IMG/VR virus record: IMGVR_UViG_3300037067_008333
Location: 23,925-87,924 of that record
Direction: 5' to 3' (one strand)
From: a virus
Taxonomy: Duplodnaviria > Caudoviricetes
Length of the DNA stretch: 64,000 bases
The notes under the pieces are model-generated. The model was given only the letters and a program-made list of their open reading frames with translations. It had not been told where the DNA came from and did no database searches. The first letter of the stretch is position 1. Each line of letters begins with the position of its first letter. Position numbers and translations under genes: made by a program. This document shows positions 11,874 through 41,382 of the stretch, piece after piece.

Positions 11874-11875
11874 TT

Positions 11876-14635: not shown

Positions 14636-14673
14636 AAAAATAAGGGGCCAAGAATATACCTGGCCCCTTATTT
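14636..14673. terminator. Bidirectional intrinsic terminator between convergent gene blocks
   Basis: Stem taaggggcca (14641-14650), 10-nt loop, tggcccctta (14661-14670), flanked by A-tract and T-tract. Confidence 0.85.
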
Positions 14674-14689
14674 AATTATATCAGTTTAT

Positions 14690-20424: not shown

Positions 20425-20777
20425 AGAATACCCTTTTGTTTTCTTTTAATGTAATCTTCAGTTTGCATGTAATCTCGACTATAAGTATATGTATTAACTT
20501 GTGGAGTTTTTACAAGTAATTTAATTTTAACTGGACTGAAAATTGTTGTTTGTTGAATAAATAAAAATAACGTTTCCCATTCTTTATCATCCTCGACATA
20601 TTTGAAATTCGATGTTGATATTATGCGGCCGGCACCCCATTCTATCTTTTCAATGTATTTAGCTCCATCGTATACATTTAAAAGCGCTGCATAGTCTTTT
20701 CCACAATCACTAAGGATACCCATACATAAAAATCGTGGATCATTGGTGGCACATGGTTTATCTGTAACTAATTGCAT
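20421..20777 (-). CDS. Hypothetical protein
   Basis: 118 aa, coupled by overlaps to both neighbours. Confidence 0.5.
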   Translation of the reverse strand: MQLVTDKPCATNDPRFLCMGILSDCGKDYAALLNVYDGAKYIEKIEWGAGRIISTSNFKYVEDDKEWETLFLFIQQTTIFSPVKIKLLVKTPQVNTYTYSRDYMQTEDYIKRKQKGIL

Positions 20778-21511
20778 TATAGTTTCCTGTAATAGTTCCC
20801 GGTTGTTTTCGTTTCCGCGGAAAGTCGTTTATATATTTCAAAGCTTGCTTTTCGTTCCATTTCTTTTTCATCCTCACTCATGATTTTAGGTACTTTTCCT
20901 ATTTCTATGGGAATAATATATTTCTGTGATTCAAGAACATGTGGTATACCTTGATTTTTTGGTAATAAACCAACATTTGTTATACGATCAAATTGTTCTC
21001 TAGCACCATAATAATATCTAGTGAATCTATCATCAATACCACCCACCTTTTCTATGACTCTTCTAGTGTAATATAATAATTGTGATGAATGTTCTTTCAT
21101 CCATGCAACTTGTATATTTCCAATAGAATCAATTTGCAATGGTGGTTCTTCCATAAGGTTCAATTTTTTATAGGTAAAGTATGGAATATTTGAAAGAGCA
21201 GATGCCAGGGTATACAATTCAACCCAGTTGGGACTAATGATTTCCATGTCATCTTCAATGATAAACATAGCATTGAATTGTGAGAATCTTCTGATAATCC
21301 TATTCTTATTTCTGTTAGGTCCTACCGTGGGGCCATAAGTGAACTCAATTCCCTCTTTCATGAGCATTTCTACGGTTCCATCTGTGGATCCATCTACCGC
21401 GCAAAATAGGTGATATGATATGTTCTGTGTATTTTTCCTGATGCTATTAATAAGGATCTTCAGGCTTTCTTTTCTGTTGTACGTGGTGATTCCCAATCCT
21501 ATCCGTATCAT
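20777..21511 (-). CDS. Glycosyltransferase, GT-A fold (GT2-like)
   Basis: ITTYNRK, DGSTDGT, IEDD, VGGID motifs. Likely start MIRIG at 21511. Confidence 0.75.
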   Translation of the reverse strand: MIRIGLGITTYNRKESLKILINSIRKNTQNISYHLFCAVDGSTDGTVEMLMKEGIEFTYGPTVGPNRNKNRIIRRFSQFNAMFIIEDDMEIISPNWVELYTLASALSNIPYFTYKKLNLMEEPPLQIDSIGNIQVAWMKEHSSQLLYYTRRVIEKVGGIDDRFTRYYYGAREQFDRITNVGLLPKNQGIPHVLESQKYIIPIEIGKVPKIMSEDEKEMERKASFEIYKRLSAETKTTGNYYRKL

Positions 21512-21519
21512 ATTTTCTC

Positions 21520-22491
21520 CTATATAAATTTCTGATGCATCAACTTTCCAGAATCCCATAAAAGATTAAGGATATTATTATAGTCAGAATAGTAACATTT
21601 TACACACCTGCTACCATCGAAGTATTTTTGTTGTGCATATACTTGATACATATCATCTGCGGTAGACATTACAAATTCTTTAGTAAAATCGTAGGATGGT
21701 TTCTTTTGCGCGTACTGGATTCCACAACATGGAAGCCAGTTTCCCAAAGGATCAATGTTTGGTTTAAGAAGACTAATAAGACAGCGTTTATGACCTTTGG
21801 TATAATTTTTTCGGCCTTGATATATAACTCGGCAATCGTTTACATCGTTATAAGAGATAAAATCTTGTACTTTATCTATATTTGAAGCTTTATTGGATAG
21901 TATATTATCCACAATACGAATATGGCTGAAGTTGTATTTATTAGCGTATATAATACAATTTAGTAGATTTCCCAGGTTATCGTTATCAGTAAGTACATAA
22001 CTAAAAGCCCAATCAATTTTAGCTTCCATTAATGGTGTGAGATGCTCTTTATTTAGTTTTTGTTCGTCACTGACGGATATTCTACACCATGTAAGTTTCT
22101 TCAATGATTCCATTTTTAGTTTATTAAATAAGACCCCATTGGTGACTAATCCGATATCTATATGTTTTTTGGTAATATAGTCAATTAGTTCATTGATGTG
22201 TGGGTATGCTAGAGGATCTCCACCACCTGTTATTGTGATAGCTTCCGTTCCCATGATATGAAATTCATTAATTATTTGTTTAGCGAGATCTAGATCCATC
22301 ACATCTTTTTTATTACGTTTATCACAACTACAAAAAGAACAATGTAATGGACATACATTGGTTGGATTCAACTGAACGTGTATGGGACGGATGGTATGCT
22401 CTTTTACTAATTTTATAATGCTTTCGTTTGAGATAATCTTCTTCGGTAACGTGCTTGCCGCTGTAAAGGAACTAATGTCAAAACCTGTCAT
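21520..22491 (-). CDS. Radical SAM / SPASM-twitch enzyme
   Basis: CPLHCSFC, TGGGDP, TNG, C-terminal C..PCC and C..C. Confidence 0.85.
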   Translation of the reverse strand: MTGFDISSFTAASTLPKKIISNESIIKLVKEHTIRPIHVQLNPTNVCPLHCSFCSCDKRNKKDVMDLDLAKQIINEFHIMGTEAITITGGGDPLAYPHINELIDYITKKHIDIGLVTNGVLFNKLKMESLKKLTWCRISVSDEQKLNKEHLTPLMEAKIDWAFSYVLTDNDNLGNLLNCIIYANKYNFSHIRIVDNILSNKASNIDKVQDFISYNDVNDCRVIYQGRKNYTKGHKRCLISLLKPNIDPLGNWLPCCGIQYAQKKPSYDFTKEFVMSTADDMYQVYAQQKYFDGSRCVKCYYSDYNNILNLLWDSGKLMHQKFI

Positions 22492-22514
22492 AATATCTCC
22501 TTATCTTTATGTCC

Positions 22515-22552
22515 TTTGTATTATAATATATACAAATATTGATTTTTTTCAA
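22515..22552 (-). promoter_or_regulatory. Possible internal promoter with overlapping palindrome
   Basis: Minus strand TTGAAA about 16 bp before TATATT, plus TATAAT, inside a 7-bp inverted repeat tttgtat...atacaaa in a short intergenic gap. Confidence 0.3.
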
Positions 22553-22995
22553 CCAATTTTTTTCTTGAAAAAGGAGATGTAATCACTACAGAGTCCGAAA
22601 ACATTTCTATATTCTATTTTCATATTTTTATCCTGGGGTAGACAGATGCAAGGATGGCAACATTTTATTTCTTTACCTGGATAGATCCAGATGATTCCCT
22701 TTGACGTAAGAGTAGCCGCATCAGTATTATGGTAGAATGTATTGAGCTTTAATCGCATCAATTCGGAAAGTGTTTGGAGGTCTTTAGCATGACACCAGAG
22801 ACCTTTCATAGATAGGAATGTTTGCGGGATATTGTATTGAGGAAAATCATGGCCCAGGAAGAAATTGATACCGTTGAACCACACATCAATCTCAACATCA
22901 TATCCTTTATTGAGTACACTGATGATGCGCCGGGGTTTATTTTCTTGGTTTGGTACTCGGCCGTTAATGTTCCCGCGGTGACTGATAAATATCAT
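22549..22995 (-). CDS. GDPD-like (glycerophosphodiester phosphodiesterase fold) small protein
   Basis: ISHRGN, VEIDVW, LGHD, WCHAK motifs. Confidence 0.7.
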   Translation of the reverse strand: MIFISHRGNINGRVPNQENKPRRIISVLNKGYDVEIDVWFNGINFFLGHDFPQYNIPQTFLSMKGLWCHAKDLQTLSELMRLKLNTFYHNTDAATLTSKGIIWIYPGKEIKCCHPCICLPQDKNMKIEYRNVFGLCSDYISFFKKKIG

Positions 22996-23708
22996 GGTTT
23001 TGACCTTGATGTATCAGTATGTTGGTGATAAATAATACCATCACTATAATTATAAGAGTAATAGACATTATCTTCATTGAGTCGTATTACTTTTTTATGA
23101 AAGTCGGGGCCCGTACATCTTGATAGTTCATCTCCCAGACATTGTTCGGAAGTATATTTATTGGTAATTGGAATTGATGCAAATGTTTTATGTTGACATG
23201 CAAATTCTCCATCAATAATAAATATACTACATGAAAAATCAGCTATATTCATGTGTTGATAACGACCTCCACATTTTCCAAGTAAGGGATTTGAATCCAC
23301 AGCGTGAAATGATTGTCCAATAGCCTGAGAAACAGCAGCTATAGCACCGCGACTCTTAATTTTTTTATAAAGTCTGTCAAAATTTGTGGCATCGGTGATT
23401 ACGGTATCTCCAGTGAACGCAACAATGTATTCGGTATTTTGTTCAAGGGAATAAAATGTGGAAAAACCCAATGAATAGTTACGGGAAATAGCATAGGATG
23501 GAAGTTCAAATCTGTTATAAATAGTGCCAAGATTCGGAAGGTGATAATATTTATTAACCAATTTTTTGATCTCTTGTAATTCGGACGATTCTTTGTCATA
23601 GGAATGACAAAGAATGATACAAGTATCTTGAAAATTATTTCGAATGTTTCTCAAGGAACTAAGTACCTGTTTATGTTCATCATACATTGTACACACGAAT
23701 GTTTTCAT
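22992..23708 (-). CDS. Hypothetical, possible GT-A fold glycosyltransferase
   Basis: 238 aa, beta-strand N-terminus, FTGDT, EQCLG. Cluster context. Confidence 0.4.
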   Translation of the reverse strand: MKTFVCTMYDEHKQVLSSLRNIRNNFQDTCIILCHSYDKESSELQEIKKLVNKYYHLPNLGTIYNRFELPSYAISRNYSLGFSTFYSLEQNTEYIVAFTGDTVITDATNFDRLYKKIKSRGAIAAVSQAIGQSFHAVDSNPLLGKCGGRYQHMNIADFSCSIFIIDGEFACQHKTFASIPITNKYTSEQCLGDELSRCTGPDFHKKVIRLNEDNVYYSYNYSDGIIYHQHTDTSRSKP

Positions 23709-24823
23709 ATAATCTCCACTTGTGGATTAATAGATTTTAGTTTATTGATAATTTCTTGATTATAAATTCCCATTCTACATATAACAATGGGATTAATATT
23801 ATCTTTGATGCATTCTGGATTATATATTGGAAAGGTATATCCGTAAAGGAACTTACCCTGTTTTAATTTCGAGTTATCCAGAAAAGCTTGAATATTAAAC
23901 ATTTGCAATCCTGATTGTAGAAGATATTGTGAAGCTGAATGAGCGGCATAAAGGTAGACTTCTTTCTTACCCTTTATTTTTTGGTTTACTTCACGCATAT
24001 CTTTTTGGATATTATCAAAAAACGTATATAATCTACTTATAGCTGATCTATTGAATGGAGCTGGTAGATTAAGTTTATTTGCTTTCTGAGCTGCAACGAA
24101 TATGGCGTGGTTTTTATGGTGGATGAGATTCACAATTCTAAATCCAGTATTTGCAATCATAGCTTCAAGACCGGATTGCGTTAGGTAATATGTGTGTTCA
24201 AAGTGCATATTATAAGGTGGCATTAAATCATGATCGGCAATATATTCCATATTAGGGAATGAGAGAATAATTTGTCCGTTTTCAGGAAGAATATCATAAA
24301 GTTTTTCTAGTATTTCCCGGGGTTGGTATAGATGCTCTAAAACATGTGAAAATACTACTGTATCTACCTTTTCCTTTATTAGTGTACTAGTATCAAAATA
24401 GGAATGTTTTATAGTTAATTTATCAGATATGATTGCATTGGGTGATGGAGTTTGTTCGTATATTGTCCAATGTTCCAAAGATTCATTGTTCACTTTTGAA
24501 AATAGTTCACCCGTTGGACTTCCAATTTCCAGGACATTTTTTGGATTATGTTTTTTAATGAATTCACTAAAAGCTTCCATGTGAGTTTTCCATGTTTCAC
24601 CGACAGTTGTATAATTAAGATTAACCATATAAACACGGTATGGTTCGGCCAAATAACCAAGTTGAATTGTTTCACATTTACGGCAGAAACAAAATTGCAA
24701 CACTTCGAAATCATCTACTACGGGTTTATCTAAACAACTCATTGAAACTGGCATGGATATTTCTCTGAATGGGATCAGTTGAATATCTCCACAGAATACA
24801 CATTTATCTCGTTTTATCATCAT
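23705..24823 (-). CDS. NDP-hexose C-methyltransferase-like SAM-dependent enzyme
   Basis: N-terminal Zn motif C..CG...C..C, LEIGS, SHVLEH, EH.YY, C-terminal LDNS..KQGK.LYG domain. Confidence 0.75.
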   Translation of the reverse strand: MMIKRDKCVFCGDIQLIPFREISMPVSMSCLDKPVVDDFEVLQFCFCRKCETIQLGYLAEPYRVYMVNLNYTTVGETWKTHMEAFSEFIKKHNPKNVLEIGSPTGELFSKVNNESLEHWTIYEQTPSPNAIISDKLTIKHSYFDTSTLIKEKVDTVVFSHVLEHLYQPREILEKLYDILPENGQIILSFPNMEYIADHDLMPPYNMHFEHTYYLTQSGLEAMIANTGFRIVNLIHHKNHAIFVAAQKANKLNLPAPFNRSAISRLYTFFDNIQKDMREVNQKIKGKKEVYLYAAHSASQYLLQSGLQMFNIQAFLDNSKLKQGKFLYGYTFPIYNPECIKDNINPIVICRMGIYNQEIINKLKSINPQVEII

Positions 24824-25535
24824 TCCTCCTCAAGTATATTTCCAGATCTTCTGGAGTGCCTATTCCCCACATTTCATTCACCATGTACGGAAGAACCATT
24901 TTACTCATTCCTATAAGTTCGTTGAACACCGGGCATGTGTAGAACTCATTGTTGACCCTAATGTTTTTGGCAATCATTTGTTCCGCGGCTTGAACAAAAT
25001 CACTTCCTCGTTTGAAATAATAGATACCCACTGTAGCTAGATTACTAATAGGATCTTTCTCTGCAACTCGTATGATCCGTTCTTCCTTTACTTCGGCGTA
25101 GCTCCATTTTTTTCCTTCTGCCAGGAAACAAAGAATTCCACCGTCTGCTTTTTTAGATTCGAAGTATCGTGCTGAGAGTGTCATATACATGTAATCTTTT
25201 ACGATTTGATCACAATTTGCCAGTATTAATTCTTGATCGTTGTTAATGTACTTTTTTGCAAGAAGGATGGTGCACGCTGCTCCTTCAGTAATTCCAGGAG
25301 TTAAAACAACATTGAAGTTAATATTATTTTTATCCATGATATCTATGAATCTCTCATAGTGTGTATACCAAAATTCTTCAAGACAAATAAATGTATATGT
25401 TCCATAGATGTTTAGATTTTTTACCACACGTTCAATCATCGGAACACCTTCAACGTTGATAAATGGTTTTGGTTCTTTGTATCCTTTTTCTACGAACCGG
25501 CTTCCCCGGCCGGCCATGGGGATAACTATTTGCAT
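24804..25535 (-). CDS. Sugar-phosphate nucleotidyltransferase-like protein
   Basis: IPMAGRGSRF...PKPFI, ANCDQ, AEK.PIS, NNEFY, GTPEDL. Confidence 0.8.
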   Translation of the reverse strand: MQIVIPMAGRGSRFVEKGYKEPKPFINVEGVPMIERVVKNLNIYGTYTFICLEEFWYTHYERFIDIMDKNNINFNVVLTPGITEGAACTILLAKKYINNDQELILANCDQIVKDYMYMTLSARYFESKKADGGILCFLAEGKKWSYAEVKEERIIRVAEKDPISNLATVGIYYFKRGSDFVQAAEQMIAKNIRVNNEFYTCPVFNELIGMSKMVLPYMVNEMWGIGTPEDLEIYLRRNDDKTR

Positions 25536-26146
25536 TTAAGTTCCTCGATTCTTTTTATGATATTTTCATAAGTAACTTCACTGCTGTTTTTAACACGGAG
25601 AACATGGGCTCCGGATGCCAAGGCTGATTTTATTCCGTTATCACTGTCTTCTACAATGAGTGTTTCAAGTGGTGATATTCCCATGAATGCCATTGCCTGA
25701 AGATAGGGAGACGGATTTGGTTTTGGGAATTTTGTTGTTTCATTTCCCTGGATGTATTCAAGATAATAATTTAGGTCGGATCGAACAAGCATCTCATAAG
25801 CTGTTTTGTAAATGCTATTTGTAACACATGCTTTTCTGTAATCTACGAGTTGGGCCATCATATCCACTTTTTGTGGGTCAGGTTTACATTGTGCATGAAT
25901 GATATTTAAGGTGTGATGTTGTTTAAGAATAAATATCTTATCATGATCGTTGTTTTTCAAGATACCTTCGGTTGTAAGCATTTTCAACTTTGTCTTTGTA
26001 GTGAGTCCATTGTATGTTTCGATGTGTTTATCATAAGGTATAACATAACCGCAAATGTCATTCAGAGCCCTATTGAGCGCCTGGTAATGCCAATCCTGTG
26101 CTTCTATAAGAACACCATCTAGATCAAACAATATACTGGTTATCAT
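25526..26146 (-). CDS. HAD-superfamily phosphatase
   Basis: FDLDGVL, TN, PKP.P, VEDS..G motifs. Confidence 0.85.
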   Translation of the reverse strand: MITSILFDLDGVLIEAQDWHYQALNRALNDICGYVIPYDKHIETYNGLTTKTKLKMLTTEGILKNNDHDKIFILKQHHTLNIIHAQCKPDPQKVDMMAQLVDYRKACVTNSIYKTAYEMLVRSDLNYYLEYIQGNETTKFPKPNPSPYLQAMAFMGISPLETLIVEDSDNGIKSALASGAHVLRVKNSSEVTYENIIKRIEELKCK

Positions 26147-27249
26147 TTGTAGAGCTTTTCGAGCATATCCTTGTTATCTTCAATCCACTTGAGTATCTTA
26201 ACATAACCCTGTTTTATGCCAACTATGGGTTCCCATCCGATATATTTTTTAATTTTACGGATATCGGATATATAAACACAGTGGTCTGCTTTTCGGACAT
26301 TAGGAACTATCGTCACTTCCGTTGTGTTTCCGGTTAGCTCAGCCAACATATCACATGCTTCCAAGAGCGATATGGATTTGTCACCACCTCCACCAATATT
26401 GAAAGCTTGGCCGGCAACATTGTCTATATTTTTCATTTCCATATCAACTAAGTTACATATGTCACTGATATAGAGTGCATCACGAACCTGTTTTCCGTTC
26501 CATCCAAATAGGGTCAATGGTAGGTTAAAACGGTAGGCGATAGCGAACCAGGTAACCCATCCCTGCTCACATTTTCCCCATTGCCGTGGGCCATAGAGAC
26601 AGCTGAACCGGTTGATAACAGTCTTGACACCAAAGGCGTCGAAATATTCCTGGCACATGAGGTCACCCATTACCTTGCTCAGACCATAGATACTGTGCTG
26701 ACCACCGTCAATAGTGAGTTCGTTACTGAATCCGTATCCATAAGTGAATCCCACTGGAGTTTTATAATCTGTATGATATCCGGCTGTAAGGTCCCAATTC
26801 CATCGTTTGTCGAATTCTTTCAATGGTATTGAATTGACAATATCTCCGCTATAAACCTTATTGGTTGACCAGTAGATGACTGCTGAACCGTTCTTCCTGG
26901 CAAATTCCAATACATTCAACAAACCAACGGTATTGTTGGTGATATCAAACATTGGATTCTTGTAGCCTTCCGTGGCGCTGGGTTGAGCACTGCATTCACA
27001 AATAAAGTCTACCCTTGGGAGTTGTTCAAAATCTTCTGGGCAACGTACATCTCCGTGAATAAATGTAATACCCCGCTCTTTTAAGGCTGGTAGATTGAAT
27101 TCACTTCCCCGGCGTACAAGATTATCCATAGCAATAACGTCGTGACCGCGCTCTTTGAGATAAAACGCTAAATTTGCACCTACGAATCCTGCACCACCCG
27201 TAATCAATATTTTCATGATGTCTCCTTTATTCATCTTTCCAATTGACAC
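26143..27249 (-). CDS. NAD-dependent epimerase/dehydratase, CDP-paratose 2-epimerase-like
   Basis: TGGAGFVG, DNLVRRG, STNKVY, YGLSK, QVRD motifs. Confidence 0.8.
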   Translation of the reverse strand: MSIGKMNKGDIMKILITGGAGFVGANLAFYLKERGHDVIAMDNLVRRGSEFNLPALKERGITFIHGDVRCPEDFEQLPRVDFICECSAQPSATEGYKNPMFDITNNTVGLLNVLEFARKNGSAVIYWSTNKVYSGDIVNSIPLKEFDKRWNWDLTAGYHTDYKTPVGFTYGYGFSNELTIDGGQHSIYGLSKVMGDLMCQEYFDAFGVKTVINRFSCLYGPRQWGKCEQGWVTWFAIAYRFNLPLTLFGWNGKQVRDALYISDICNLVDMEMKNIDNVAGQAFNIGGGGDKSISLLEACDMLAELTGNTTEVTIVPNVRKADHCVYISDIRKIKKYIGWEPIVGIKQGYVKILKWIEDNKDMLEKLYK

Positions 27250-28039
27250 CTATAGCTATACCACCATTGAATTGCTCATTAGTAACTAATTGACCATTTT
27301 CATCACGTCTATAATTACCCAATGAAGAGGATCCTGGTCGTGCCATGGTTTGAACATATGTATCTACTGTTGTTCCCCATTTCCATCCGAATTCATATCC
27401 TTTGTATTGCATGACAGCTTCATAACTGTGGGCATACTGAAGTGGAACTTTTTCTTTTTTCAGGTTGTTTACAAATCCTCCTATTTCATTGAAGAAACGT
27501 TTATTAAGAAACCAGTTACCTCCCCACTCTGATACGTAACCTTCTACTTTTCCATCTTTGCTTTTATACATTTCTGGTACATATTGTTTCATCTTCTCAT
27601 AATCGCCAGGTGCTGCCCAGTGATTGAAACCGGAAATTATTCTAACTTTATATTTTTCTGCCCATTCACTATCCAACATATCAACTAAAACATCGGTCCA
27701 TCCTGTACGATAAAATAAATCATCAGCACCTAAAAGCATATATGGAAATGCTGGATTAGAGTTGTCTATTCCGGCTTTATATGCTCTTTCCACACACCCG
27801 GTGAGTTCATGCACTGGTATATTTGCCCTGTGAGGTAAAAGTATTATTTTATCATATAATCCCTCATTTTTCATTTGTTGGTATTTTTCTACGTGGTTTG
27901 GTTCGCTACCGCCATCCACAATTACTATTTCTTTCGGTTCATATGAAGTTCTCAATTTTAAATTTCTCAGGCTTTCTTGCAACATATCTGGCCTATTGTA
28001 AGTTGGTATTATTATAGATACGCCTTTTAATTCATTCAT
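27227..28039 (-). CDS. GT2-like glycosyltransferase
   Basis: SIIIPTYNR, VDGGS, ADD. Confidence 0.75.
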   Translation of the reverse strand: MNELKGVSIIIPTYNRPDMLQESLRNLKLRTSYEPKEIVIVDGGSEPNHVEKYQQMKNEGLYDKIILLPHRANIPVHELTGCVERAYKAGIDNSNPAFPYMLLGADDLFYRTGWTDVLVDMLDSEWAEKYKVRIISGFNHWAAPGDYEKMKQYVPEMYKSKDGKVEGYVSEWGGNWFLNKRFFNEIGGFVNNLKKEKVPLQYAHSYEAVMQYKGYEFGWKWGTTVDTYVQTMARPGSSSLGNYRRDENGQLVTNEQFNGGIAIGVNWKDE

Positions 28040-28893
28040 ATAATCTCCTTAATATTTTTTATTTCTACGGCACATTTACCAGCTTCTAAAAATCTGTTAG
28101 CTTTTAATTTTACATCACAAGGATTACATGTTCCAAATTTATTACAAACTCTATAAATAGAATCGATTTGTAAATGTTTATTTGCGATGTTATCTATAGG
28201 ATATTCATCTTCGTATAAATCTCTATGACATTTATATATATTACCTTCGGGACCTATTAGTAGTTCATTACTTTTACATTCACACGATTTAATCACTCCA
28301 GATATTGATTCCGGATATTTATAATATCCAAATATATTGTTGTCATAATTTCCTAAAAAATCCTTTATAAAAAAATATATTTTTTTATTTCTGGCAATTT
28401 CTGACATTATTATATTATATTTTGTATTTAATGGGTGGTTGATACCGAATAATCCTATAGAAAATCCTGCGTCTTGTAAAGCTACACAACGTGATATTAT
28501 ATCATTTGGATCCATACTTATAGGATGATAACTTACACGTATAGATTTATAAGCCGCATTATCACAACTATAGAATATCGACGGAGATATTTTGGATATG
28601 AATTCATTGATATTAAATTGTAAATTCGTCAAGAGATCTATTTTTATTTCGGGTTTTAATAGTTTCACGAATTCATAAAAATCAGTTCGCGTAGTAGGTT
28701 CTCCCCCACCTATCGTTAGCGGTATATTGGTAAAGTCTATCATATTAAGATTTTCAGAAAGTTGTTTAATATCTATTTCAGTTCTATTTCTTTTTATTCC
28801 TGAAAAAGTATTAATACAGTATGGACATTTTAAATTACATTTTAATGTAAAATACAATTCAACATAGTTTATTGTTTTAGGTAGATTTATCAT
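28036..28893 (-). CDS. Radical SAM / SPASM-twitch enzyme
   Basis: CNLKCPYC, GGGEPT, TN, C..GNIYKC, C....C..C. Confidence 0.85.
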   Translation of the reverse strand: MINLPKTINYVELYFTLKCNLKCPYCINTFSGIKRNRTEIDIKQLSENLNMIDFTNIPLTIGGGEPTTRTDFYEFVKLLKPEIKIDLLTNLQFNINEFISKISPSIFYSCDNAAYKSIRVSYHPISMDPNDIISRCVALQDAGFSIGLFGINHPLNTKYNIIMSEIARNKKIYFFIKDFLGNYDNNIFGYYKYPESISGVIKSCECKSNELLIGPEGNIYKCHRDLYEDEYPIDNIANKHLQIDSIYRVCNKFGTCNPCDVKLKANRFLEAGKCAVEIKNIKEII

Positions 28894-31095: not shown

Positions 31096-31108
31096 TTATT
31101 ACTCCTTT

Positions 31109-33481: not shown

Positions 33482-33482
33482 G

Positions 33483-34049
33483 TTATCCTCGGGTTTCTGT
33501 TACTGCACTATTGAAGTCATAGAAATATAAAACCTTATCTATCCTGACTTCATTTCGGACATCTTTGCAGGCCCTGACGACCCAATTGACATCCTCTCCG
33601 TAATTTAGATTGGGGTACATGTGGCGTTTGGCTATGGCTGATTTCCATACCATTGTATGAGCTGGTTTTCCTTTCCACTGGTCACCTATCTGACCATATT
33701 CATACCTTATACTATATTGAGAATACGTTTTTTGTCCACCATTTATTGTCGTAATACAGTCGAATACAACTACATCGACGGTAGGATTTGCATATAATGT
33801 ATCCATGATGGATTGCACATAATCATTCGCTACCCTGTCATCGTCATCAATAAAGGTAAGGTATTCACCTGTTGCCAGGTTCAGTAAGGCATTTCGTTTC
33901 TGACCTACAGTACGGCGTTTATTATCATAGAGGCCGATTATTTCAACATCAGGACGGTTATTAACCTGATCCTGGAGTTGTTTAATAAGACGTGGAAAGA
34001 ATGTTTCAAGTCTTGATGGTACGGTTGCAACAAGAATTGATAGTTTCAT
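33483..34049 (-). CDS. GT2-like glycosyltransferase
   Basis: LSILVAT, KRN.L...A.GEY..FIDDDD, GED. Confidence 0.75.
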   Translation of the reverse strand: MKLSILVATVPSRLETFFPRLIKQLQDQVNNRPDVEIIGLYDNKRRTVGQKRNALLNLATGEYLTFIDDDDRVANDYVQSIMDTLYANPTVDVVVFDCITTINGGQKTYSQYSIRYEYGQIGDQWKGKPAHTMVWKSAIAKRHMYPNLNYGEDVNWVVRACKDVRNEVRIDKVLYFYDFNSAVTETRG

Positions 34050-35023
34050 TATTTCCTCGCAAGAAGTTTTTCATATTCCTGGACTATTCTGGTGACAACG
34101 TTTTTGGCTGACCATGTTTCTTGCATGAATTTTCTGACAGCCTTTCCACGTTCTTCTAGGATGCCCAGGTTTTCTGAATAAAAAACAATACGTTCAGCAA
34201 TTTCATTGATGTTACGAACACGTTCAAATGGATAAAAGTCAGTTTGGAAAAACTCACGGAAGACTTTATCGAACTCTGGACAAATATTACACATAGTTGG
34301 TACACCAAGTGCAAGATTTTCTACGGTGGTCATACCGTGGTATTCTCTCCAAAGTGCATCGAATCCTAGGTTAATCATTTTCTTTCTGCGGATAATATGC
34401 TCGTGTGGTAAATCAGTTTCAATGATGGCTTTAACAGGGTATTTTTGAACAGCGATTTCAATTCCTTTTCGGAGTTCCATGGTATTCTTGTTATTGCCGC
34501 CTCCTGTTGGGAAATGGCCGATAGTAACATTATGATAGTCACGGAATGTATTCATATCGAATTCAGAAGATTTTTCATCTACGATATCAGGAATGTAAAT
34601 ACAACCATCGTAGATGTGGATAGCCTGGGGAATGGAAGAGAAGATAGCATCATAACCTATATCCTGGCGCTTATTCCAATAGTCCTTTGCCTTAGCACGT
34701 TCTCTCCAACCTCCTGGAAAACTACAATAGTCATGGAATATCTTGATTTTTCCTTTGAGTTCTTGTTCCCAATTAAAACCCCAGACATGCGAGCTAGTAT
34801 AGGTATGGGTCGCTGAGCAGAAGTGAATGACATCAGATTCACGTATAATCTGAACAAACTCATCGCGGTTGTAGTTATCAGGAGTAATATCAGTATCATA
34901 ATTAAACGTCCTTACTGCTCTGAAATGCCTGGCTTGCCAGTTGGTGTACTTGGAAATTGCACGGGCCTGCCTGATTGAGACTCCAGCTGCATCCCACGCT
35001 GGGTTAACAAAAAGAACTCTCAT
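34049..35023 (-). CDS. GT4-like (GT-B) glycosyltransferase
   Basis: VLFVNP, HG..TVE.LA.GVP motif. Confidence 0.6.
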   Translation of the reverse strand: MRVLFVNPAWDAAGVSIRQARAISKYTNWQARHFRAVRTFNYDTDITPDNYNRDEFVQIIRESDVIHFCSATHTYTSSHVWGFNWEQELKGKIKIFHDYCSFPGGWRERAKAKDYWNKRQDIGYDAIFSSIPQAIHIYDGCIYIPDIVDEKSSEFDMNTFRDYHNVTIGHFPTGGGNNKNTMELRKGIEIAVQKYPVKAIIETDLPHEHIIRRKKMINLGFDALWREYHGMTTVENLALGVPTMCNICPEFDKVFREFFQTDFYPFERVRNINEIAERIVFYSENLGILEERGKAVRKFMQETWSAKNVVTRIVQEYEKLLARK

Positions 35024-35703
35024 AATTCTCTCCTTTTTCTGGCATTCGCCAGTACTTCAACAGTATCATCATATCCCTTAACATGACTTACTGTTGCCGG
35101 GTGATCACGGTAATATCCTAATATAATCGGTATATGGTATAGATTCATCCTCTCTTCGCATTTCAAAGCAAAGTCATAATCCTGGGCTGTAAAGCGCGTA
35201 TCAAATCCTCCAAGCTGGTCAAAAAGTTGTTTGCGCCACATGAAGCAAAGACCTATATGGCATCCGGTAAGTAATAATCCTTTGGTATATGGCGGTCGCA
35301 GTATTGCCTCACCGATAATTCCATTTTCATTTATAAACTGGAAGTCCGAATAGACAAACCCAACGTCCGGTTTTCCATCTAGTATATTCGCCAGGATTCG
35401 GATAAACATGGTAAAGTAAATATTATCTGAGCTTACATAGGTATGATATTTACCTTTGGCTTTGGAGAATCCATAGTTAAGAGCGCTACCAGTGCCGCCA
35501 TTTTCTTTATAATGATACTCTATTTTATCTGGATACTGGATTGCATAATCCATAGCAATGGTTGCCGTATCATCAGTTGAACCATCGTTGATAATATAGA
35601 GTTTCCAATCATCACAATCTTGTTTAAGGATACTTTCAATAGCTTCCGGCAAAAACTTAGCTTGATTATATGCCGGCATTACGCAACTAATTGTTTCCAT
35701 CAC
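35020..35703 (-). CDS. GT2 glycosyltransferase
   Basis: PAYNQ, NDGSTD, SSDN, GGFD, QDYDF. Confidence 0.85.
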   Translation of the reverse strand: MMETISCVMPAYNQAKFLPEAIESILKQDCDDWKLYIINDGSTDDTATIAMDYAIQYPDKIEYHYKENGGTGSALNYGFSKAKGKYHTYVSSDNIYFTMFIRILANILDGKPDVGFVYSDFQFINENGIIGEAILRPPYTKGLLLTGCHIGLCFMWRKQLFDQLGGFDTRFTAQDYDFALKCEERMNLYHIPIILGYYRDHPATVSHVKGYDDTVEVLANARKRREL

Positions 35704-36062
35704 TCCTCCGTTTTGTTTTCAATAATAAAGAATTTTGTTATTGATTTATTTTCATCAAGGTCATATGCTACACAACCCCATCCTTTCTTTGGACCGTCAT
35801 CAAAACTTCCAAATAATCCATTGAGGATACCAACCATACCAACCGTGAAATCACTGAATCCTGATGGTATCTGGTTTGGACCAACGAGGTTTTTGACAGC
35901 ACCACATTGTACTGTAGGGTGGTTTGCCATAGCTTCTGAACATGATTGCTTCGTTATGACTACTTTCGTAATGGCATCTCGGTCAATTTCTAAAAGACTA
36001 TTAAGAAAATCTACTACTTCTTGCGGTGTGACGTGTTCTTTTATTGACATCTGTTCCTCCAA
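35700..36062 (-). CDS. Hypothetical protein
   Basis: 120 aa with RBS GGAGG. Looks like a non-glycan phage ORF inside the cluster. Confidence 0.5.
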   Translation of the reverse strand: MEEQMSIKEHVTPQEVVDFLNSLLEIDRDAITKVVITKQSCSEAMANHPTVQCGAVKNLVGPNQIPSGFSDFTVGMVGILNGLFGSFDDGPKKGWGCVAYDLDENKSITKFFIIENKTEE

Positions 36063-36871
36063 AATTCTTCAGTTTCTTGTATCTGTTTTGATATATCAGA
36101 TTTTGTTTTTCCATCACTATCACGAGCACACACTTTATTTTTCCATAGAGCATATTCAAGATCATTTTCGTGGGGATGTTCTATATAAGCTGTTTCGAGT
36201 ATTTGCCATGTGTAACCGTGTTTATTAAGGTCTTGCAGATAATACGCTTCATCACCCGCATATACACCCATTACTTTATATCCCCCAATTTCTTTCCAAG
36301 CTTTTAAATTCAAGAAAAAACAACCACCTGCAATATGAGCTGCCGGTGTTGGCCATATAACTCGTTCCTTCATGTTGAAAGAATTCGTGTATTCAAATGA
36401 GTTTTTACAGTTTTCAATGACATGGCAGTTATATCCAGTCATATTTGGGGCTACAACACCACACGGTTTATGTTTGTGAGATTCCATTTGCTGCACACAT
36501 TCAAGTAATCGTTTCAAAATGACACTCGAACCTTCTGGAATCTTCATATCTGAATCCATTGTGAACATATAATCATATGGTTTATCTTTCAATGCGGCAC
36601 ACACTAGATGATTAACTACAAAAGCTTTACCATAATTCTTATCGTGAAATTGAATAAGTTTTACTTCACCAGATGGATTATGGCTCCAGAACGGTAGAAA
36701 TTTTATAGTATCCGTTATTTGTTTTTTGTAATCATCATTAGCGGCATAACCACCAAAGTAAAGTTCACAATCTATTGTTTTGAAATTACGTATTGACGTT
36801 ATGGATTCCAGATTCCGTTCCAGACGTTTTTTATCTGGAGCAAATATTGGTTGTGTTATTAATATTCTCAT
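36041..36871 (-). CDS. GT2-like glycosyltransferase
   Basis: NYGKA..N, MDSD, GGCF, IGGY, GDE. Confidence 0.65.
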   Translation of the reverse strand: MRILITQPIFAPDKKRLERNLESITSIRNFKTIDCELYFGGYAANDDYKKQITDTIKFLPFWSHNPSGEVKLIQFHDKNYGKAFVVNHLVCAALKDKPYDYMFTMDSDMKIPEGSSVILKRLLECVQQMESHKHKPCGVVAPNMTGYNCHVIENCKNSFEYTNSFNMKERVIWPTPAAHIAGGCFFLNLKAWKEIGGYKVMGVYAGDEAYYLQDLNKHGYTWQILETAYIEHPHENDLEYALWKNKVCARDSDGKTKSDISKQIQETEEFWRNRCQ

Positions 36872-38420
36872 ATTTTTCCTCTGCTATTTTATGATAAAAT
36901 TCCAGTGTCGGAAGATGATTTGGATCTTTCATGTCTTCCGTTAAATTTATATCCGGTTCTAGAAGTTCCTTGTACCACTTACTTACAAAATATGGACGAT
37001 CATGCAACATTATTTCTCTGGATGGTTCACCGCGGGTGGCGCTGCATACATGATATAATGTTGAATATGGAGTATATATTATTTTATATCCAAGCTTCTT
37101 TACTTTCATACAAAGATCCACGTCCTGGAACTCTATCATATACTCGGGATCGAAACCACCCACTTGCTCGAAGATCTCACGTTTGATCATGAGGCATGCT
37201 CCGGTAACTGACGATACTTCTCTGATGTAATTTACGTGGGGAAAACTAACTTGTGCATTGAGATGTATGTGTCCAGCAATACCCCCAAGTCCAAGGGCTA
37301 CACCAGCATGTTGAATTGTCTTATTAGCATAAATAAGCCTGGAACCAACGATACCTACTTCCGGTCGTTGTATGTGTTTGACCATTTCGCTTAAAAAATA
37401 AGGAGTAGCTATTGTATCGTTATTTAAGAAAAGAAGATATTTAAAATTAGCTTTTGTTACTGTTTTATTATTTGTTTTTGAAAAGTGAAACGTATCATGT
37501 AATACCGTGTGATATGTCGTATTAATAATATTCAAAGCTTCTGTATTTGTTGAACCTGTGTCTACAATAATAACTTCATGTGGATAATCAGCATTATGTT
37601 CTATACTACTAATACAATTTCTCAGTAATGTAGGTTGATCTTTTGTGAGAATTATTATAGATACTGGTTCTGTAGTTTCAATTGTACGATCTATATGCCA
37701 GTGTGTTTTAATGATACTCGCTTTAATAGACCCCTTTATTCCGCGGCGTTTCATGGTTTCTTCTACTACAGTTTTACTGTTTGCAAATACTCGATCATCA
37801 ATACCCATGGTTGTTGTGGAGATTTTTGATTGTCTCCAACTATATAGAACGCGGCGCAGGTGACCTATTTTATATTTTTCAGAGATACGCAGAATTAGAT
37901 CGTAGTCCTGGGCTCCGCTAAAACGAACTGGTAAGAATTCCTTAACAGTTGCGGCCTTAATAAGCTTGAAATGGTTGATATACATTTTAGAAAGAAGAAG
38001 ATCATCATTATAATCTTCTTTATAAGTGTAATGGATTAGCTTATCATTCTTATCTATAAATTCTTCATCGGTATAGACCATCGAATACTCAGGATGATCT
38101 TTGAGATATTTCACGCATTCTTCAACGCAAGTTAACTTAAGCGTATCATCGTGATCTACGAAACCAATATATTCACCGGTTGCAATCTCTATGCCTTTTG
38201 TGGTTGCTTCAGCTATACCTTTATTTTCATCGAGATAGACATATTTAAACCTATCTCTGTTTGTGAAAAGAGAGTGATGATCTTTCTTTTTTGAACCATC
38301 ATCGATAATTATAACTTCAAGATTAATATATGTTTGGTCGATAATAGATCTAAAAGTTTTATCAAGAAATTTCACGTTAGAATTATATGTTGGTACGATG
38401 AGTGTTACTTTTTTATCCAT
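36831..38420 (-). CDS. Tandem GT2-GT2 glycosyltransferase (rhamnan-polymerase-like architecture)
   Basis: Two complete GT2 domains: PTYN/DDGS/DHDD/QDYD and DTGS/LNND/VTGAC/QDVD. Confidence 0.85.
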   Translation of the reverse strand: MDKKVTLIVPTYNSNVKFLDKTFRSIIDQTYINLEVIIIDDGSKKKDHHSLFTNRDRFKYVYLDENKGIAEATTKGIEIATGEYIGFVDHDDTLKLTCVEECVKYLKDHPEYSMVYTDEEFIDKNDKLIHYTYKEDYNDDLLLSKMYINHFKLIKAATVKEFLPVRFSGAQDYDLILRISEKYKIGHLRRVLYSWRQSKISTTTMGIDDRVFANSKTVVEETMKRRGIKGSIKASIIKTHWHIDRTIETTEPVSIIILTKDQPTLLRNCISSIEHNADYPHEVIIVDTGSTNTEALNIINTTYHTVLHDTFHFSKTNNKTVTKANFKYLLFLNNDTIATPYFLSEMVKHIQRPEVGIVGSRLIYANKTIQHAGVALGLGGIAGHIHLNAQVSFPHVNYIREVSSVTGACLMIKREIFEQVGGFDPEYMIEFQDVDLCMKVKKLGYKIIYTPYSTLYHVCSATRGEPSREIMLHDRPYFVSKWYKELLEPDINLTEDMKDPNHLPTLEFYHKIAEEKYENINNTTNICSR

Positions 38421-41184
38421 GTTTTAAATCTCCAATGTCAGGTGGATTTTTCCAATATTCGATGAGTTTATAATTATTTGGATTATAATAAAGTATAGGA
38501 GTATAAGGATCTCCTTTAATCATTTCATTATACCACTGTGCGACAAAATATGGACGATCATTCAATGCATCATGGATATTTACATTACCACGAGTAACAC
38601 CAGCCAAGTGATAAACAATAGATTTAGGTTGATAAATAACTTTATAACCCATTCGTCTTACTTTCATACAAAGATCAACATCCTGAAATTCGATAATATA
38701 TTTTTCATCGAATTTACCGACTTTTTCAAAAATATCACGTTTTATCATAAGGCATGCTCCGGTTACAGCTGAAACTTCCCGGGCATAATTAGCAGGTTTG
38801 TAATTAAAAGGTTTACCGATATAGAGATGCCCAGCTAGTCCATTATTTCCCACCATAACACCTGCATGTTGAATGGTTTTATTGGGGAAAAGAAGTTTTG
38901 ATCCTACAATACCAACTTTTTCATCCTGAAGGACCTTCAACATTTCACTAAGCCATGTTGGATTAACAAGTGTATCATTGTTTAGGAAAAGCAACGTGTT
39001 ATATTTAGCATATTTAAGGATCATATTGTTTGCTATTGAGAAATTGAACGTTGCAAGATTTGACTTAAATATTTGAATATTTTTATGTGATTTAATTCGT
39101 TCATAATAAGCAAGAACATTTCTATCTGTACTTCCTGTATCATGGATTAAAATTTCGAATATACCATTTGTATATTTAAGTATGCTCTCTACACATTTTA
39201 TTATAAGTTCAGGTTTGTCTTTTGTACAAATGATTATACTTACCGGTTCTTTTGGTTCTTTATTTGTATATTTCCATTCATTAAGCTGTGGAATATATGG
39301 GATCTTATCTCCAGTTGTTGTAATGGGTATAGAATCAAAGAGATTAATCCATTGTTTTTTTACTACATTGAAGTCAAAACGTTGTACGGATTTCCGGGAT
39401 TCCCGGCGAAGATGTTCAATCTTGTTATCATATACCATTTGATAACAATCAATTAAATCTTCGATTTTTGGTATAGCACGTTTCACATTCGTAATGATAT
39501 CTATATAATACGCAATGGGTTTGAGTTTAAGTGTTCCCTTATCAAATTGAGAAAGCTCCGAATAATCTGTAATGATAACCGGAATACCTGCAGCCAAGGC
39601 CTGGCAATTATGAACGGTTGCTACACCATTAACAAGAAAGCTATGATCATTTTCAACGGTAAGATTGTAAACGAAACCGTTATACCTATATACTCGCGTA
39701 GACTTGATGGGTGTAGTGATATACGTGACTCTGTGTTCAATGCCAGCGTAGTGTGAATACTTCGTTTTGTATTTTTGTGGTAGAATTTTTATAGCCCATT
39801 TATTATTTATATCATAAACTGAATTGTAAATGGGATGTTCATTGTTAATAAGGATGTCACGATATTTGAAAATAAGATTCTTATCATCACTGTAGAATGC
39901 TCTTTTCTCCAATAAGATTTTCTTTATAGTTTCATCTATAGGTTCGCGTATGATTGGATACTTTAGCAAATCTCCTGCTCTAAGATCAAGAGCTTTGTGC
40001 CCAAAATACCGGAATGGCTCCTTGGTATTTCCTTTGATTGCCATGATCTTTTCAAGAATAGTGGTTGAAAAAGCCGGTGCAGATACAGGGGTGATCTTTA
40101 CCATCTTACCTTTATATGGTATCTTGCTAACTGATATAACTTTTTGATAACGTCCTTTGTGGGTAGCCACTTCCATTCCAGTCTTTACATTTTCAATATT
40201 AAGATAACCAGTCTTAGTCTTTACAAGAGTTCCGGGTGCATAACATGTTGTTTGACCGAATCCTTCTCCCAGCGATGGTGCTACAACACATGTGCATGCA
40301 TTATAAAGTTCATTGAGTTCTTCTTTGGGAACACCCCTTCCAACTTTAAGTTTGCGATTAAGAATAATTTTATCAGTTATACCGAGATCTTCTAGCATTT
40401 GCTCTATATTCCAGCCATCTCTGTCTTTCAGGGCTGTGTGGATATAGAAATATACATTATCGGGGCGATTTGGCCACTTTGCGAACGCTTCAAGGGCATA
40501 TGGAAGGCCCTTGCGATCGTTTTGCCTGCTAAAAAACCCCAATACAACATCATCAGGATTAAGATTCCAGTGTTTCTTTTTGAGTTCCGCGGCTGTTGAT
40601 ACCGGTTTGAATGTTTGCATGTCAATTCCATTGGGTATCACAGGCCACTCTTTTATATCATCAATATTAATGTTATTATATCTTGGAGTCTTTTTAATGT
40701 GGCTCATTATACGTTTTATGGTATTTTCTTTACCAAATTGTCCCGCAAATATTACCTTGTGATTACGCAGCAATACTTCGGGCCAATTAAATGTTTGTTT
40801 ATCTGCACCCCAGGTGTCTTCTGGAATAGGAGCCCCTTCAACGTGGAAATAATAGAGCGACGGAATGAGATTATTCATGAAGTGTTGAGCGTGCCATATA
40901 TCCGTGATTATCAACACCAACGTAGGATTGAATTCGGAGAGAATATCAAAATATTTACCGTTGGCATAATTAGCAAATGGAGGTTTACATGAATATACTT
41001 TCCATGGAATAGTATGATCTCCAAAACTGACTATGTTTTCATTTGGACGTTTATCCCACAAACCCACATTAGCTATGGGATAACCCGAATCGTAACATGC
41101 TTTACTTATTTCTCTAACTAATAATGAAAATCCAGTATCTAAATACGGACTATCACCTACTACTAATACTCTGTGTTTATCCAT
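38413..41184 (-). CDS. GT4-GT2 fusion glycosyltransferase containing a mini-intein
   Basis: GT4 (TGF, PNGID, RK, EGFG...ALAAGIPVI) interrupted by an intein, followed by a C-terminal GT2 domain. Confidence 0.85.
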   Translation of the reverse strand: MDKHRVLVVGDSPYLDTGFSLLVREISKACYDSGYPIANVGLWDKRPNENIVSFGDHTIPWKVYSCKPPFANYANGKYFDILSEFNPTLVLIITDIWHAQHFMNNLIPSLYYFHVEGAPIPEDTWGADKQTFNWPEVLLRNHKVIFAGQFGKENTIKRIMSHIKKTPRYNNINIDDIKEWPVIPNGIDMQTFKPVSTAAELKKKHWNLNPDDVVLGFFSRQNDRKGLPYALEAFAKWPNRPDNVYFYIHTALKDRDGWNIEQMLEDLGITDKIILNRKLKVGRGVPKEELNELYNACTCVVAPSLGEGFGQTTCYAPGTLVKTKTGYLNIENVKTGMEVATHKGRYQKVISVSKIPYKGKMVKITPVSAPAFSTTILEKIMAIKGNTKEPFRYFGHKALDLRAGDLLKYPIIREPIDETIKKILLEKRAFYSDDKNLIFKYRDILINNEHPIYNSVYDINNKWAIKILPQKYKTKYSHYAGIEHRVTYITTPIKSTRVYRYNGFVYNLTVENDHSFLVNGVATVHNCQALAAGIPVIITDYSELSQFDKGTLKLKPIAYYIDIITNVKRAIPKIEDLIDCYQMVYDNKIEHLRRESRKSVQRFDFNVVKKQWINLFDSIPITTTGDKIPYIPQLNEWKYTNKEPKEPVSIIICTKDKPELIIKCVESILKYTNGIFEILIHDTGSTDRNVLAYYERIKSHKNIQIFKSNLATFNFSIANNMILKYAKYNTLLFLNNDTLVNPTWLSEMLKVLQDEKVGIVGSKLLFPNKTIQHAGVMVGNNGLAGHLYIGKPFNYKPANYAREVSAVTGACLMIKRDIFEKVGKFDEKYIIEFQDVDLCMKVRRMGYKVIYQPKSIVYHLAGVTRGNVNIHDALNDRPYFVAQWYNEMIKGDPYTPILYYNPNNYKLIEYWKNPPDIGDLKHG
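39607..40245 (-). mobile_element. Mini-intein (213 aa) in the GT4 domain
   Basis: Begins CYAPGTLV, ends VYNLTVENDHSFLVNGVATVHN, +1 residue Cys. No clear LAGLIDADG motif. Confidence 0.85.
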
Positions 41185-41374: not shown

Positions 41375-41382
41375 GATATCCT

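Follow-up and report, generated by a model that had tools for sequence, protein, structure and literature searches.

What would a phage build, and onto what, with a long run of genes for making and joining sugars but none for exporting a glycan? The question is raised by an IMG/VR virus record (IMGVR_UViG_3300037067_008333; Caudoviricetes), whose DNA probably comes from a groundwater metagenome, and of which we analysed a stretch of 64,000 nucleotides, hereafter the window (bases 23925–87924 of the 87.9-kb linear record). The island in question occupies window positions 20777–41184 and comprises 23 open reading frames (ORFs), all on the minus strand and here called g1 to g23 from the high-coordinate end downwards. 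The record is ~43% complete (CheckV), leaving ~57% of the phage genome outside it, and every absence from the 88-kb record reported below has this scope. We tentatively favour the reading that the island is a lipid-carrier-independent glycan assembly line, whose glycosyltransferases (GTs) would build an oligosaccharide on protein, most likely on a virion protein.

Sugar enzymes, glycosyltransferases and the search for export genes

Nine of the island genes are GT-like and together hold 11 GT domains, the approximate counts that an earlier sequence-only reading of this DNA had given and that Pfam, the ESM Atlas and AlphaFold2 (AF2) models compared with VIA bear out. Pfam, NCBIfam and PHROGs account for six of these genes with eight domains. 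The largest, g1 (923 aa; 38413–41184, minus strand, as for all island genes below), joins a GT-B domain of GT1/GT4 type, a mini-intein and a C-terminal GT2 domain (Pfam, PHROG and sequence). The mini-intein (C...HN/C) spans about residues 313–526 (DNA about 39607–40245, minus strand) and splits the donor-binding E-x7-E motif of the GT4 domain, which is predicted to read EGFGQTTCQ once spliced, with Q replacing the second E. An intein within a glycosyltransferase is unusual, and its place in the donor-binding motif makes g1 look long-resident and selected. Two GT2 domains make up g2 (529 aa; 36831–38420; Pfam PF00535, E 1.6e-41, in two stretches), and single ones are found in g5 (227 aa; 35020–35703; Pfam E 3.7e-26) and g15 (270 aa; 27227–28039; Pfam), while g7 is GT2-like over profile positions 52–163 (188 aa; 33483–34049; Pfam E 4.5e-10). 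The last gene of the island, g23 (260 aa; 20777–21559), is a GT2 by Pfam and belongs to phrog_2456 (E 8e-25), which relates it to mycobacteriophage GTs: by tblastn it matched 552 phage records, 536 of them from Mycobacterium phages, at 24–26% identity, and it matches the N-terminal domain of Rita gp101.

Three of the six ORFs without a Pfam match also turned out to be GT-like. The structure of g3 (276 aa; 36041–36871) has a GT-A fold with a TM score of ~0.7 to GT2 clusters, mostly viral, in the ESM Atlas; g6 (324 aa; 34049–35023) is a lead only, GT1-like (GT-B) by an ESM Atlas feature score of 0.98 to GT1-named clusters. The ninth, g20 (238 aa; 22992–23708), was modelled with AF2 at pLDDT 92.9 and adopts a GT-A fold over its full length (VIA Z 10.5–12.8), its top structural matches all being GTs (GT43, SpsA, TarP and PBCV-1 A64R). 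Sequence searches of the PDB with g8, g20 and g21 gave nothing significant.

Besides these nine soluble GT-like proteins, the enzyme inventory covers hexose activation (nucleotidyltransferase, HAD and RmlABC), 2-epimerisation, C-methylation, O-methylation and a cassette of radical S-adenosylmethionine (SAM) and thiamine diphosphate (ThDP) enzymes. Hexose activation is represented in the island by the HAD-IA, beta-phosphoglucomutase/phosphatase-like g17 (206 aa; 25526–26146) and the sugar-1-phosphate nucleotidyltransferase g18 (243 aa; 24804–25535), both matched in Pfam and NCBIfam. The adjoining g16 (368 aa; 26143–27249) is an extended short-chain dehydrogenase/reductase (SDR) of the NDP-hexose 2-epimerase type, resembling CDP-tyvelose 2-epimerase over its full length (PDB 9rl0, E 2e-58; 1orr, E 7e-54). 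Downstream, g19 (372 aa; 23705–24823) has the architecture of an NDP-sugar C-methyltransferase (Methyltransf_23 plus Methyltransf_14 in Pfam), and its PDB match, 4rv9 (E 4e-10), is mycarose 3-C-methyltransferase. Two further methyltransferases are g10, of class I SAM type (164 aa; 31109–31603; Pfam), and g9 (410 aa; 31596–32828; Pfam), which carries Methyltransf_24 at residues 251–370 and a weak second methyltransferase-like region at its N-terminus. Thus the epimerase, the three methyltransferases (at 23705, 31109 and 31596), the three radical SAM enzymes (at 21520, 28036 and 29995) and the split transketolase (29363 plus 28890) that had been called from the letters alone are all confirmed.

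The sequence-only reading had further proposed a trio of nucleotidyltransferase, HAD and glycerophosphodiester phosphodiesterase (GDPD). Its first two members are g18 and g17; the third is g21 (148 aa; 22549–22995; phrog_34507), a mini-GDPD-like protein of ~60% of the usual GDPD length with a more mixed record. The motif HRG..EN..E.D.W..GHD is invariant across 34 homologues, and the top Foldseek matches of a confident model are nearly all GDPDs, but these are weak (E 3.6e-3, TMq 0.46–0.56) and there is no Pfam match. The family is large, with more than 4,276 protein clusters, of which many come from marine data such as Tara; it has no Pfam model and retains the motifs, and in cultured phages it occurs in Synechococcus myoviruses only.

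A satellite module of sugar genes lies outside the island coordinates and inside the window (51461–53947, minus strand), with RmlB-like (51461–52381), RmlA-like (52378–53112) and RmlC-like cupin (53465–53947) genes recognised by Pfam; no RmlD was seen beside them. This module probably supplies the 4-keto-6-deoxyhexose substrate for g19. Over window positions 50332–53947 (minus strand) the Rml-like genes stand with genes for thymidylate kinase and a nucleoside 2-deoxyribosyltransferase-like protein, next to the DNA polymerase gene on its downstream side, and a 100-aa ORF with one membrane segment sits between rmlA and rmlC (53134–53436).

None of the island proteins contains a membrane segment (Kyte-Doolittle, 19-residue window, threshold 1.6), and no multi-pass protein is encoded in the 88-kb record, except for several hydrophobic segments in a 2484-aa plus-strand protein upstream of the window. 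Profiles run against the record, alongside positive controls, found no priming transferase (Bac_transf PF02397, Glycos_transf_4 PF00953) and no Wzx (PF01943), Wzy_C/WaaL (PF04932) or ABC2_membrane (PF01061). The sequence-only reading, which saw neither a multi-pass membrane protein nor an initiating transferase, Wzx/Wzy, ABC exporter or ligase, therefore stands on both counts. Export genes are almost never found in related viral loci either: ORFs with at least five membrane segments occur in 1 of 49 viral cassette loci (of at least 15 kb) versus 16 of 54 cellular loci, so that phage versions in general go without export genes. That the GTs have no membrane helices was considered as proof of a lipid-free pathway and rejected, since peripheral GTs of lipid-linked pathways also lack helices.

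The radical SAM/ThDP cassette in phages and bacteria

Four contiguous genes, g11 to g14, form the cassette, and the same set is found in one further locus examined (L164) and in many viral and cellular loci. Its core is the radical SAM/SPASM protein g11 (366 aa; 29995–31095; Pfam), followed by a transketolase split into a ThDP-binding N-terminal part, g12 (211 aa; 29363–29998; Pfam, NCBIfam), and a pyrimidine-binding part without a Transketolase_C domain, g13 (157 aa; 28890–29363; Pfam), and by a second radical SAM enzyme with a weak SPASM match, g14 (285 aa; 28036–28893; Pfam). The third radical SAM enzyme of the island, g22 (323 aa; 21520–22491; Pfam), lies outside the cassette.

More than 349 homologues of g11 were found, the best 120 listed being 52–78% identical, and the relatives at 78% and 74% identity sit on contigs of 147 kb and 138 kb. 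A profile search with g11 recovered 73 viral loci, among which g14 is present in 52 and the split transketolase in ~26, always co-oriented. Viral loci without the transketolase have a split E1-dehydrogenase-type or an acetolactate-synthase-type ThDP enzyme in the same place. Since the type of ThDP enzyme is swapped at one position, the conserved unit is two radical SAM enzymes plus some ThDP-dependent enzyme of carbon-carbon chemistry, and the swaps are non-orthologous replacements of a single C-C-forming step.

At least 11 phage contigs (L004, L006, L008, L011, L013, L022–L026 and L067) form a clade in which the cassette lies directly upstream of terminase, portal and capsid genes, in the co-oriented order GroEL, sugar genes with the cassette, GT4, methyltransferase, GT4, terminase, portal and major capsid protein. 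The ThDP enzyme of this clade is of acetolactate-synthase type, split E1 alpha/beta or split transketolase. The capsid C-termini of these head-adjacent cassette phages are not Ser/Thr-rich. Profile models of the two commonest cassette partner families (f2 and f3, neither with a Pfam match) match no protein in the window. The synteny search that the sequence-only reading had called for thus has a divided outcome, in that the radical SAM/ThDP core recurs in the 73 viral loci, whereas synteny with the island as a whole was found in none of 73 viral, 80 cellular or 37 metagenome loci. The island is a mosaic. In the literature we found no paper joining a split transketolase with polysaccharide, and nothing relevant on radical SAM, transketolase, GT and phage together. 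The cassette is a compact, highly conserved four-gene unit, frequent in phages and without a known product, that could be tested directly in vitro.

We examined its bacterial context in the 80 best cellular loci for g11. Cellular homologues are mostly 36–44% identical to g11, the only closer ones being on two short contigs of metagenome-assembled genomes (MAGs; 72% and 54%), which are probably viral. In cellular loci a ThDP enzyme typically lies ~2 kb and an SDR ~5 kb upstream of the g11 homologue and GT2 genes lie downstream, and the neighbours in bacteria comprise GmhA/HldE-like, SDR, E1-type ThDP and GT genes. The locus of Methylomonas sp. TEB (L132) is an example: it begins with radical SAM, SDR, SIS (GmhA-like) and PfkB plus cytidylyltransferase (HldE-like) genes, and continues with E1 alpha, E1 beta, the g11 homologue, a 1303-aa CgeB-type GT, a radical SAM gene and a further CgeB-type GT. 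The 1303-aa protein, which has CgeB-type Glyco_trans_1_2 domains and directly follows the g11 homologue (11008–14919 of that locus), is by its sequence a candidate flagellin-directed transferase of an uncharacterised type.

A Flagellin_N search of 25 cellular genomes placed a flagellin 5–27 kb from the g11 homologue in 13 (same contig confirmed in 12, inferred from coordinates in one), and tblastn found flagellin within 10 kb in five further cellular loci. The chance expectation is ~2%, given two to four flagellin sites per 3–5.6-Mb genome. Flagellin is thus close to g11 homologues far above chance, which marks these loci as flagellin glycosylation islands. Bacteria attach sugars to flagellin while it is still in the cytoplasm and before it is exported, without a lipid carrier (PMC4065374). 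The cassette hence ties a phage sugar cluster to bacterial flagellin glycosylation, a form of protein glycosylation that takes place in the cytoplasm, rather than to lipopolysaccharide (LPS).

Possible targets of the glycan

A pathway can be proposed from the enzyme inventory. RmlA and RmlB would yield a dTDP-4-keto-6-deoxyhexose that the RmlC-like cupin epimerises and to which g19 would add a methyl branch; as no RmlD was found, the reductase role may fall to another SDR. A second hexose would be activated by g17 and g18 and 2-epimerised by the TyvE-like g16. The g11–g14 cassette would turn a nucleotide sugar into one that is branched or longer by two carbons: a reactive keto or radical position would be created by one of the radical SAM enzymes, a C2 unit would come from the ThDP enzyme, and the other radical SAM enzyme would tailor the product. 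Such C2 delivery is performed by YerE in yersiniose and by AviB1/B2 in eurekanate synthesis. The nine GTs would then assemble a branched oligosaccharide in the cytoplasm, with O-methylation by g9 and g10, and the mini-GDPD might, as a guess, add or trim a phosphodiester substituent. The acceptor would most likely be one or more proteins of the phage particle, and because virions assemble in the cytoplasm, no export would be needed; the resulting coat could serve as a shield or as an adsorption determinant.

Protein glycosylation in the cytoplasm is supported by the flagellin-island homologues of g11, by the mycobacteriophage GT family to which g23 belongs, and by the cassette abutting terminase, portal and capsid genes in other phages. 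A promoter-like site, TTGAAA-N18-TATTATA (22522–22552, minus strand), also counts towards a virion link. It lies in the 57-nt gap ahead of g22 and g23, and the form TTGAAW-N18-TATTATA has exactly four sites in the 88 kb, every one in sense at a gene start, the other three preceding plus-strand tail and structural genes. The sequence-only reading had left open whether the glycan is built on virion proteins or on DNA; its protein option gains from the flagellin-island, mycobacteriophage and head-gene contexts, and its DNA option is disfavoured, as set out below. The fuller version of the protein reading is a possibility that we hold with less assurance: a self-sufficient system, free of lipid carriers, would cover the virion in a branched, methylated oligosaccharide that includes a sugar hitherto undescribed in biochemistry and made by a cassette that bacteria use for flagellin, and phages would be users and vehicles of that cassette, swapping the type of ThDP enzyme. 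If virions are glycan-coated, this would matter for phage adsorption, for recognition by immune or defence systems, and for the known range of natural sugars.

A number of points weigh against glycosylation of the virion. No acceptor was found, and a scan of all ORFs of the record for Ser/Thr tracts detected no mucin-like ones; the head genes are outside the record, which is itself only partial, and the island sits among replication genes rather than structural genes. Pathways for undecaprenyl-linked O-antigen and teichoic acid are just as typically served by soluble GT2 and GT4 enzymes, and sugar pathways are common to flagellin and polysaccharide loci. Three cassette genomes have no flagellin and carry polytopic membrane proteins close to the cassette, so the sugar is not exclusive to flagella. 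The kinship of g23 to mycobacteriophage GTs amounts to only 24–26% identity. The promoter motif is statistically weak, with 4 window matches at up to one mismatch versus 1.9 expected, a number reached in 9 of 100 shuffles, and because of these statistics and its sigma-70-like look it says little about timing. As a separate observation, the last gene of the plus-strand structural block (window 12978–14624) specifies a protein of 548 aa, which has a hydrophobic segment at its N-terminus and the highest Ser/Thr content in the record (22%, with 15 of 30 residues in one stretch); judging from this composition, it is a possible glycan acceptor or fibre.

The main rival, which we consider rather doubtful, is remodelling of the host surface. 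The phage GTs would work from the cytoplasmic side of the membrane on undecaprenyl- or teichoic-acid-linked intermediates of the host, and the host's priming enzyme, flippase or ABC exporter, and ligase would display the altered polymer, for instance to block superinfection or the adsorption of progeny to debris. O-antigen and capsule loci normally contain helix-free GT2 and GT4 enzymes, and the polytopic proteins in 16 of 54 cellular g11 loci, the cassette genomes without flagellin and the 57% of the genome outside the record all leave room for it. This is also the reading proposed for cyanophage 'LPS' clusters, where the set of mini-GDPD, HAD and nucleotidyltransferase recurs (PMC3037559, PMC12801897). 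However, the 88 kb hold no priming transferase, flippase, polymerase or ligase, or ABC-2 permease, a polytopic ORF is present in only one of the 49 related viral loci, the bacterial context of the cassette is mostly flagellin, that is, protein glycosylation, and in other phages it abuts head genes. Moreover, nine new GTs would have to suit the specificity of the host flippase and ligase within a single lytic cycle. If the host surface is remodelled nonetheless, the island would be a host-takeover module of unusual complexity. Alternatively, the flagellin-type sugar pathway could serve to modify a protein of the host, be it flagellin, pilin or some other surface protein such as the phage's own receptor, as the cellular cassette homologues in flagellin glycosylation islands might suggest; we judge this improbable, given that Pfam finds no Maf or CgeB-type (Glyco_trans_1_2) transferase domain in the phage island and that no viral locus contains a flagellin-like sequence. 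DNA hypermodification, in which sugars would be placed on hydroxymethylated phage bases for evasion of restriction, has the location in its favour: the island lies in a replication-gene array, and the window contains a nucleotide-metabolism block in which the RmlA/B/C-like genes stand beside thymidylate kinase, the nucleoside 2-deoxyribosyltransferase-like gene and DNA polymerase, with ribonucleotide reductase (RNR) also present. Multi-sugar DNA glycans are known from phages (Pyle 2024, as cited in PMC12619734). Yet ThyA-type hydroxymethylase (PF00303) and ThyX (PF02511) were absent from the record, with positive controls, although it holds the replication and nucleotide genes, and a DNA target is therefore disfavoured; nine GT genes, three methyltransferases and branched-sugar chemistry would far exceed any known DNA glycan, and the GT families are GT2 and GT4, of polysaccharide or protein type. 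We regard this target as very unlikely.

The slimmest chance goes to the island being non-functional cargo or an assembly artefact, whether captured host DNA, headful 'stuffer' or a mis-join. 'Stuffer DNA' was raised by Sullivan et al. for cyanophage clusters (PMC3037559), and the lack of whole-island synteny elsewhere would fit. Against this, all 23 ORFs are intact and overlap-coupled, and the composition is indistinguishable from that of the phage: the tetranucleotide profiles of the island and of the remaining record are correlated at r = 0.977, and each 5-kb island window reaches r 0.95–0.97, as high as undoubted phage regions. In an independent groundwater assembly, one contig of 17,281 bp covers 24279–41559 and crosses the junction of GT, zinc-ribbon and SNF2 genes at a depth of 9.8 versus 9.5–9.7 in the flanking contigs, and a landfill metagenome from another study contains short contigs of at least 99% identity spread over the island and the SNF2 junction region. 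In addition, g11 is nearer to viral versions (up to 61% identity in IMG/VR and up to 78% in metagenomes) than to cellular ones (up to 44%, bar the two short MAG contigs), and the intein is maintained in a GT active-site motif. The reading as cargo or chimera is largely refuted, and the host chimera that the sequence-only reading had named as its possible undoing did not materialise: the island is genuine and belongs to the phage.

Known systems and the surroundings of the island

The closest precedents in outlook are the 'LPS' clusters of cyanomyoviruses, whose role, like that of big phage sugar and GT clusters in general, has been in question since the first cyanophage genomes (PMC3037559). 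These clusters, compared here for P-SSM2, S-SSM7, S-SM2, S-SCSM1 and S-SCSM2R (PMC3037559, PMC12801897), likewise combine co-oriented nucleotide-sugar enzymes with many soluble GT genes in a large block. The enlarged genomes of P-SSM2 and S-SSM7 owe most of their added length to them, and Sullivan et al. in 2010 left their function open as 'functional or stuffer DNA' (PMC3037559); S-SCSM2R has 13 GTs (PMC12801897). Sharing of a gene family with the island is demonstrated for g21 only, homologues of which (34–40% identical) occur in 17 Synechococcus phage records inside their sugar and GT clusters, with HAD, nucleotidyltransferase, phosphoheptose isomerase, kinase, transketolase-like and GT genes as neighbours. 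Unlike the cyanomyoviruses, the phage here has no T4-like cyanophage backbone (no megablast match and distant primase matches), comes from groundwater and landfill rather than the ocean, and carries the radical SAM/ThDP cassette, the C-methyltransferase and the intein-bearing GT fusion.

Mycobacteriophages provide a functional parallel, in that soluble phage GTs of Che8, Rita and other F1-cluster members glycosylate capsid and tail proteins in the cytoplasm without export genes, according to PMC11256854 and PMC12619734; the capsids of Che8 and Rita are reported as glycosylated in the former (citing Freeman 2023). The shared PHROG of g23 and the F1 GTs has been noted above. The difference is one of scale and of evidence: the mycobacteriophages have 2–4 GT genes and use host sugar nucleotides, whereas nine GT genes and dedicated sugar synthesis are present here, and the glycan here is inferred from genes. 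The flagellin islands of Methylomonas, Aquitalea, Vogesella and Sedimenticola (L132, L097, L154 and L086) share the g11 homologue, ThDP enzyme, SDR and GTs and have flagellin adjoining, but their GmhA/HldE-like heptose activation, full-length E1 alpha/beta, giant CgeB-type transferases and flagellin have no counterpart in the phage. Chlorovirus PBCV-1 and mimivirus also pair viral sugar-nucleotide synthesis with cytoplasmic GTs and methyltransferases, placing methylated glycans on capsid or fibril proteins. The fold of g20 can be overlaid on those of PBCV-1 A64R (Z 10.6) and mimivirus R699 (Z 10.7), a likeness shown at the level of structure that reflects the generic GT-A fold; the hosts of those viruses are eukaryotic. 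Finally, Wzx/Wzy- or ABC-dependent O-antigen, capsule and S-layer loci employ the same classes of sugar-synthesis enzymes and GT2/GT4, in contrast to the island in their priming transferase, flippase, polymerase, ligase and ABC-2 permease, none of which was found in the 88-kb record.

By analogy, then, the island would work like the virion glycosylation of mycobacteriophages, chloroviruses and mimiviruses and like flagellin islands, while it looks like a cyanophage 'LPS' cluster. The label 'candidate new system' given by the sequence-only reading was overstated, because cyanomyovirus clusters (PMC3037559, PMC12801897) and mycobacteriophage virion glycosylation precede it and the g21 family is shared; rather than a new kind of system, the island is a variant of unusual size and chemical richness, and its cassette is biochemically uncharacterised.

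The island is tightly packed, with overlaps of 1–64 nt at 19 of the 22 junctions among its 23 genes and gaps of 1, 13 and 57 nt at the rest, the largest being at 22492–22548 between g22 and g21. Co-orientation and overlap coupling had been recognised from the letters alone; the gene count, put at about 21, is 23 plus a previously unlisted ORF of 65 aa that encodes a zinc ribbon (CxxC...CxxC) with a basic tail (41177–41374, minus strand; found from the sequence). This ORF fills an apparent 198-nt gap before the SNF2 gene, lies 9 nt past the SNF2 stop and overlaps the start of the first GT, g1, by 8 nt, so that the island is seamlessly embedded in the replication-gene array. Of the two borders named earlier, the SNF2 helicase junction is upheld, and the sigma factor on the other side is a sigma-like gene with a sub-threshold Sigma70_r4 match only (Pfam, E 3e-4). 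A perfect 12/12 sigma-70 consensus (TTGACA-17-TATAAT) occurs at 31660–31632 (minus strand), 29 nt ahead of the g10 start, and a second at 19722–19694 (minus strand), after the sigma-like gene. Two island genes have no enzymatic assignment: g4 (120 aa; 35700–36062) belongs to the phage family phrog_21281, and g8 (238 aa; 32765–33481) has no match in Pfam, NCBIfam, PHROGs or the PDB.

At the level of the record, the plus-strand half contains large virion and tail genes and the minus-strand half primase-helicase, SNF2 helicase, ribonucleotide reductase and DNA polymerase. Relatives are remote: a megablast search of 50,697 phage records with the island gave no match, tblastn with the primase-helicase gave distant matches to cultured phages only, with no cultured phage close, and tblastn with a transketolase subunit gave only distant or contaminant matches. 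Searches for related loci with single proteins, SNF2 or g11, found nothing, and an SNF2 profile run against IMG/VR retrieved only relatives of up to 28% identity. Two of the replication and nucleotide genes show interrupted matches. In the 1167-aa DNA polymerase ORF (window 54512–58015, minus strand), polymerase PHROGs match residues 40–263 and PHROGs named 'thymidylate synthase' and 'PhoH' match residues 260–382, and the 1061-aa RNR (window 44477–47662, minus strand) matches in two separated stretches; from these patterns, both look like further intein insertions.

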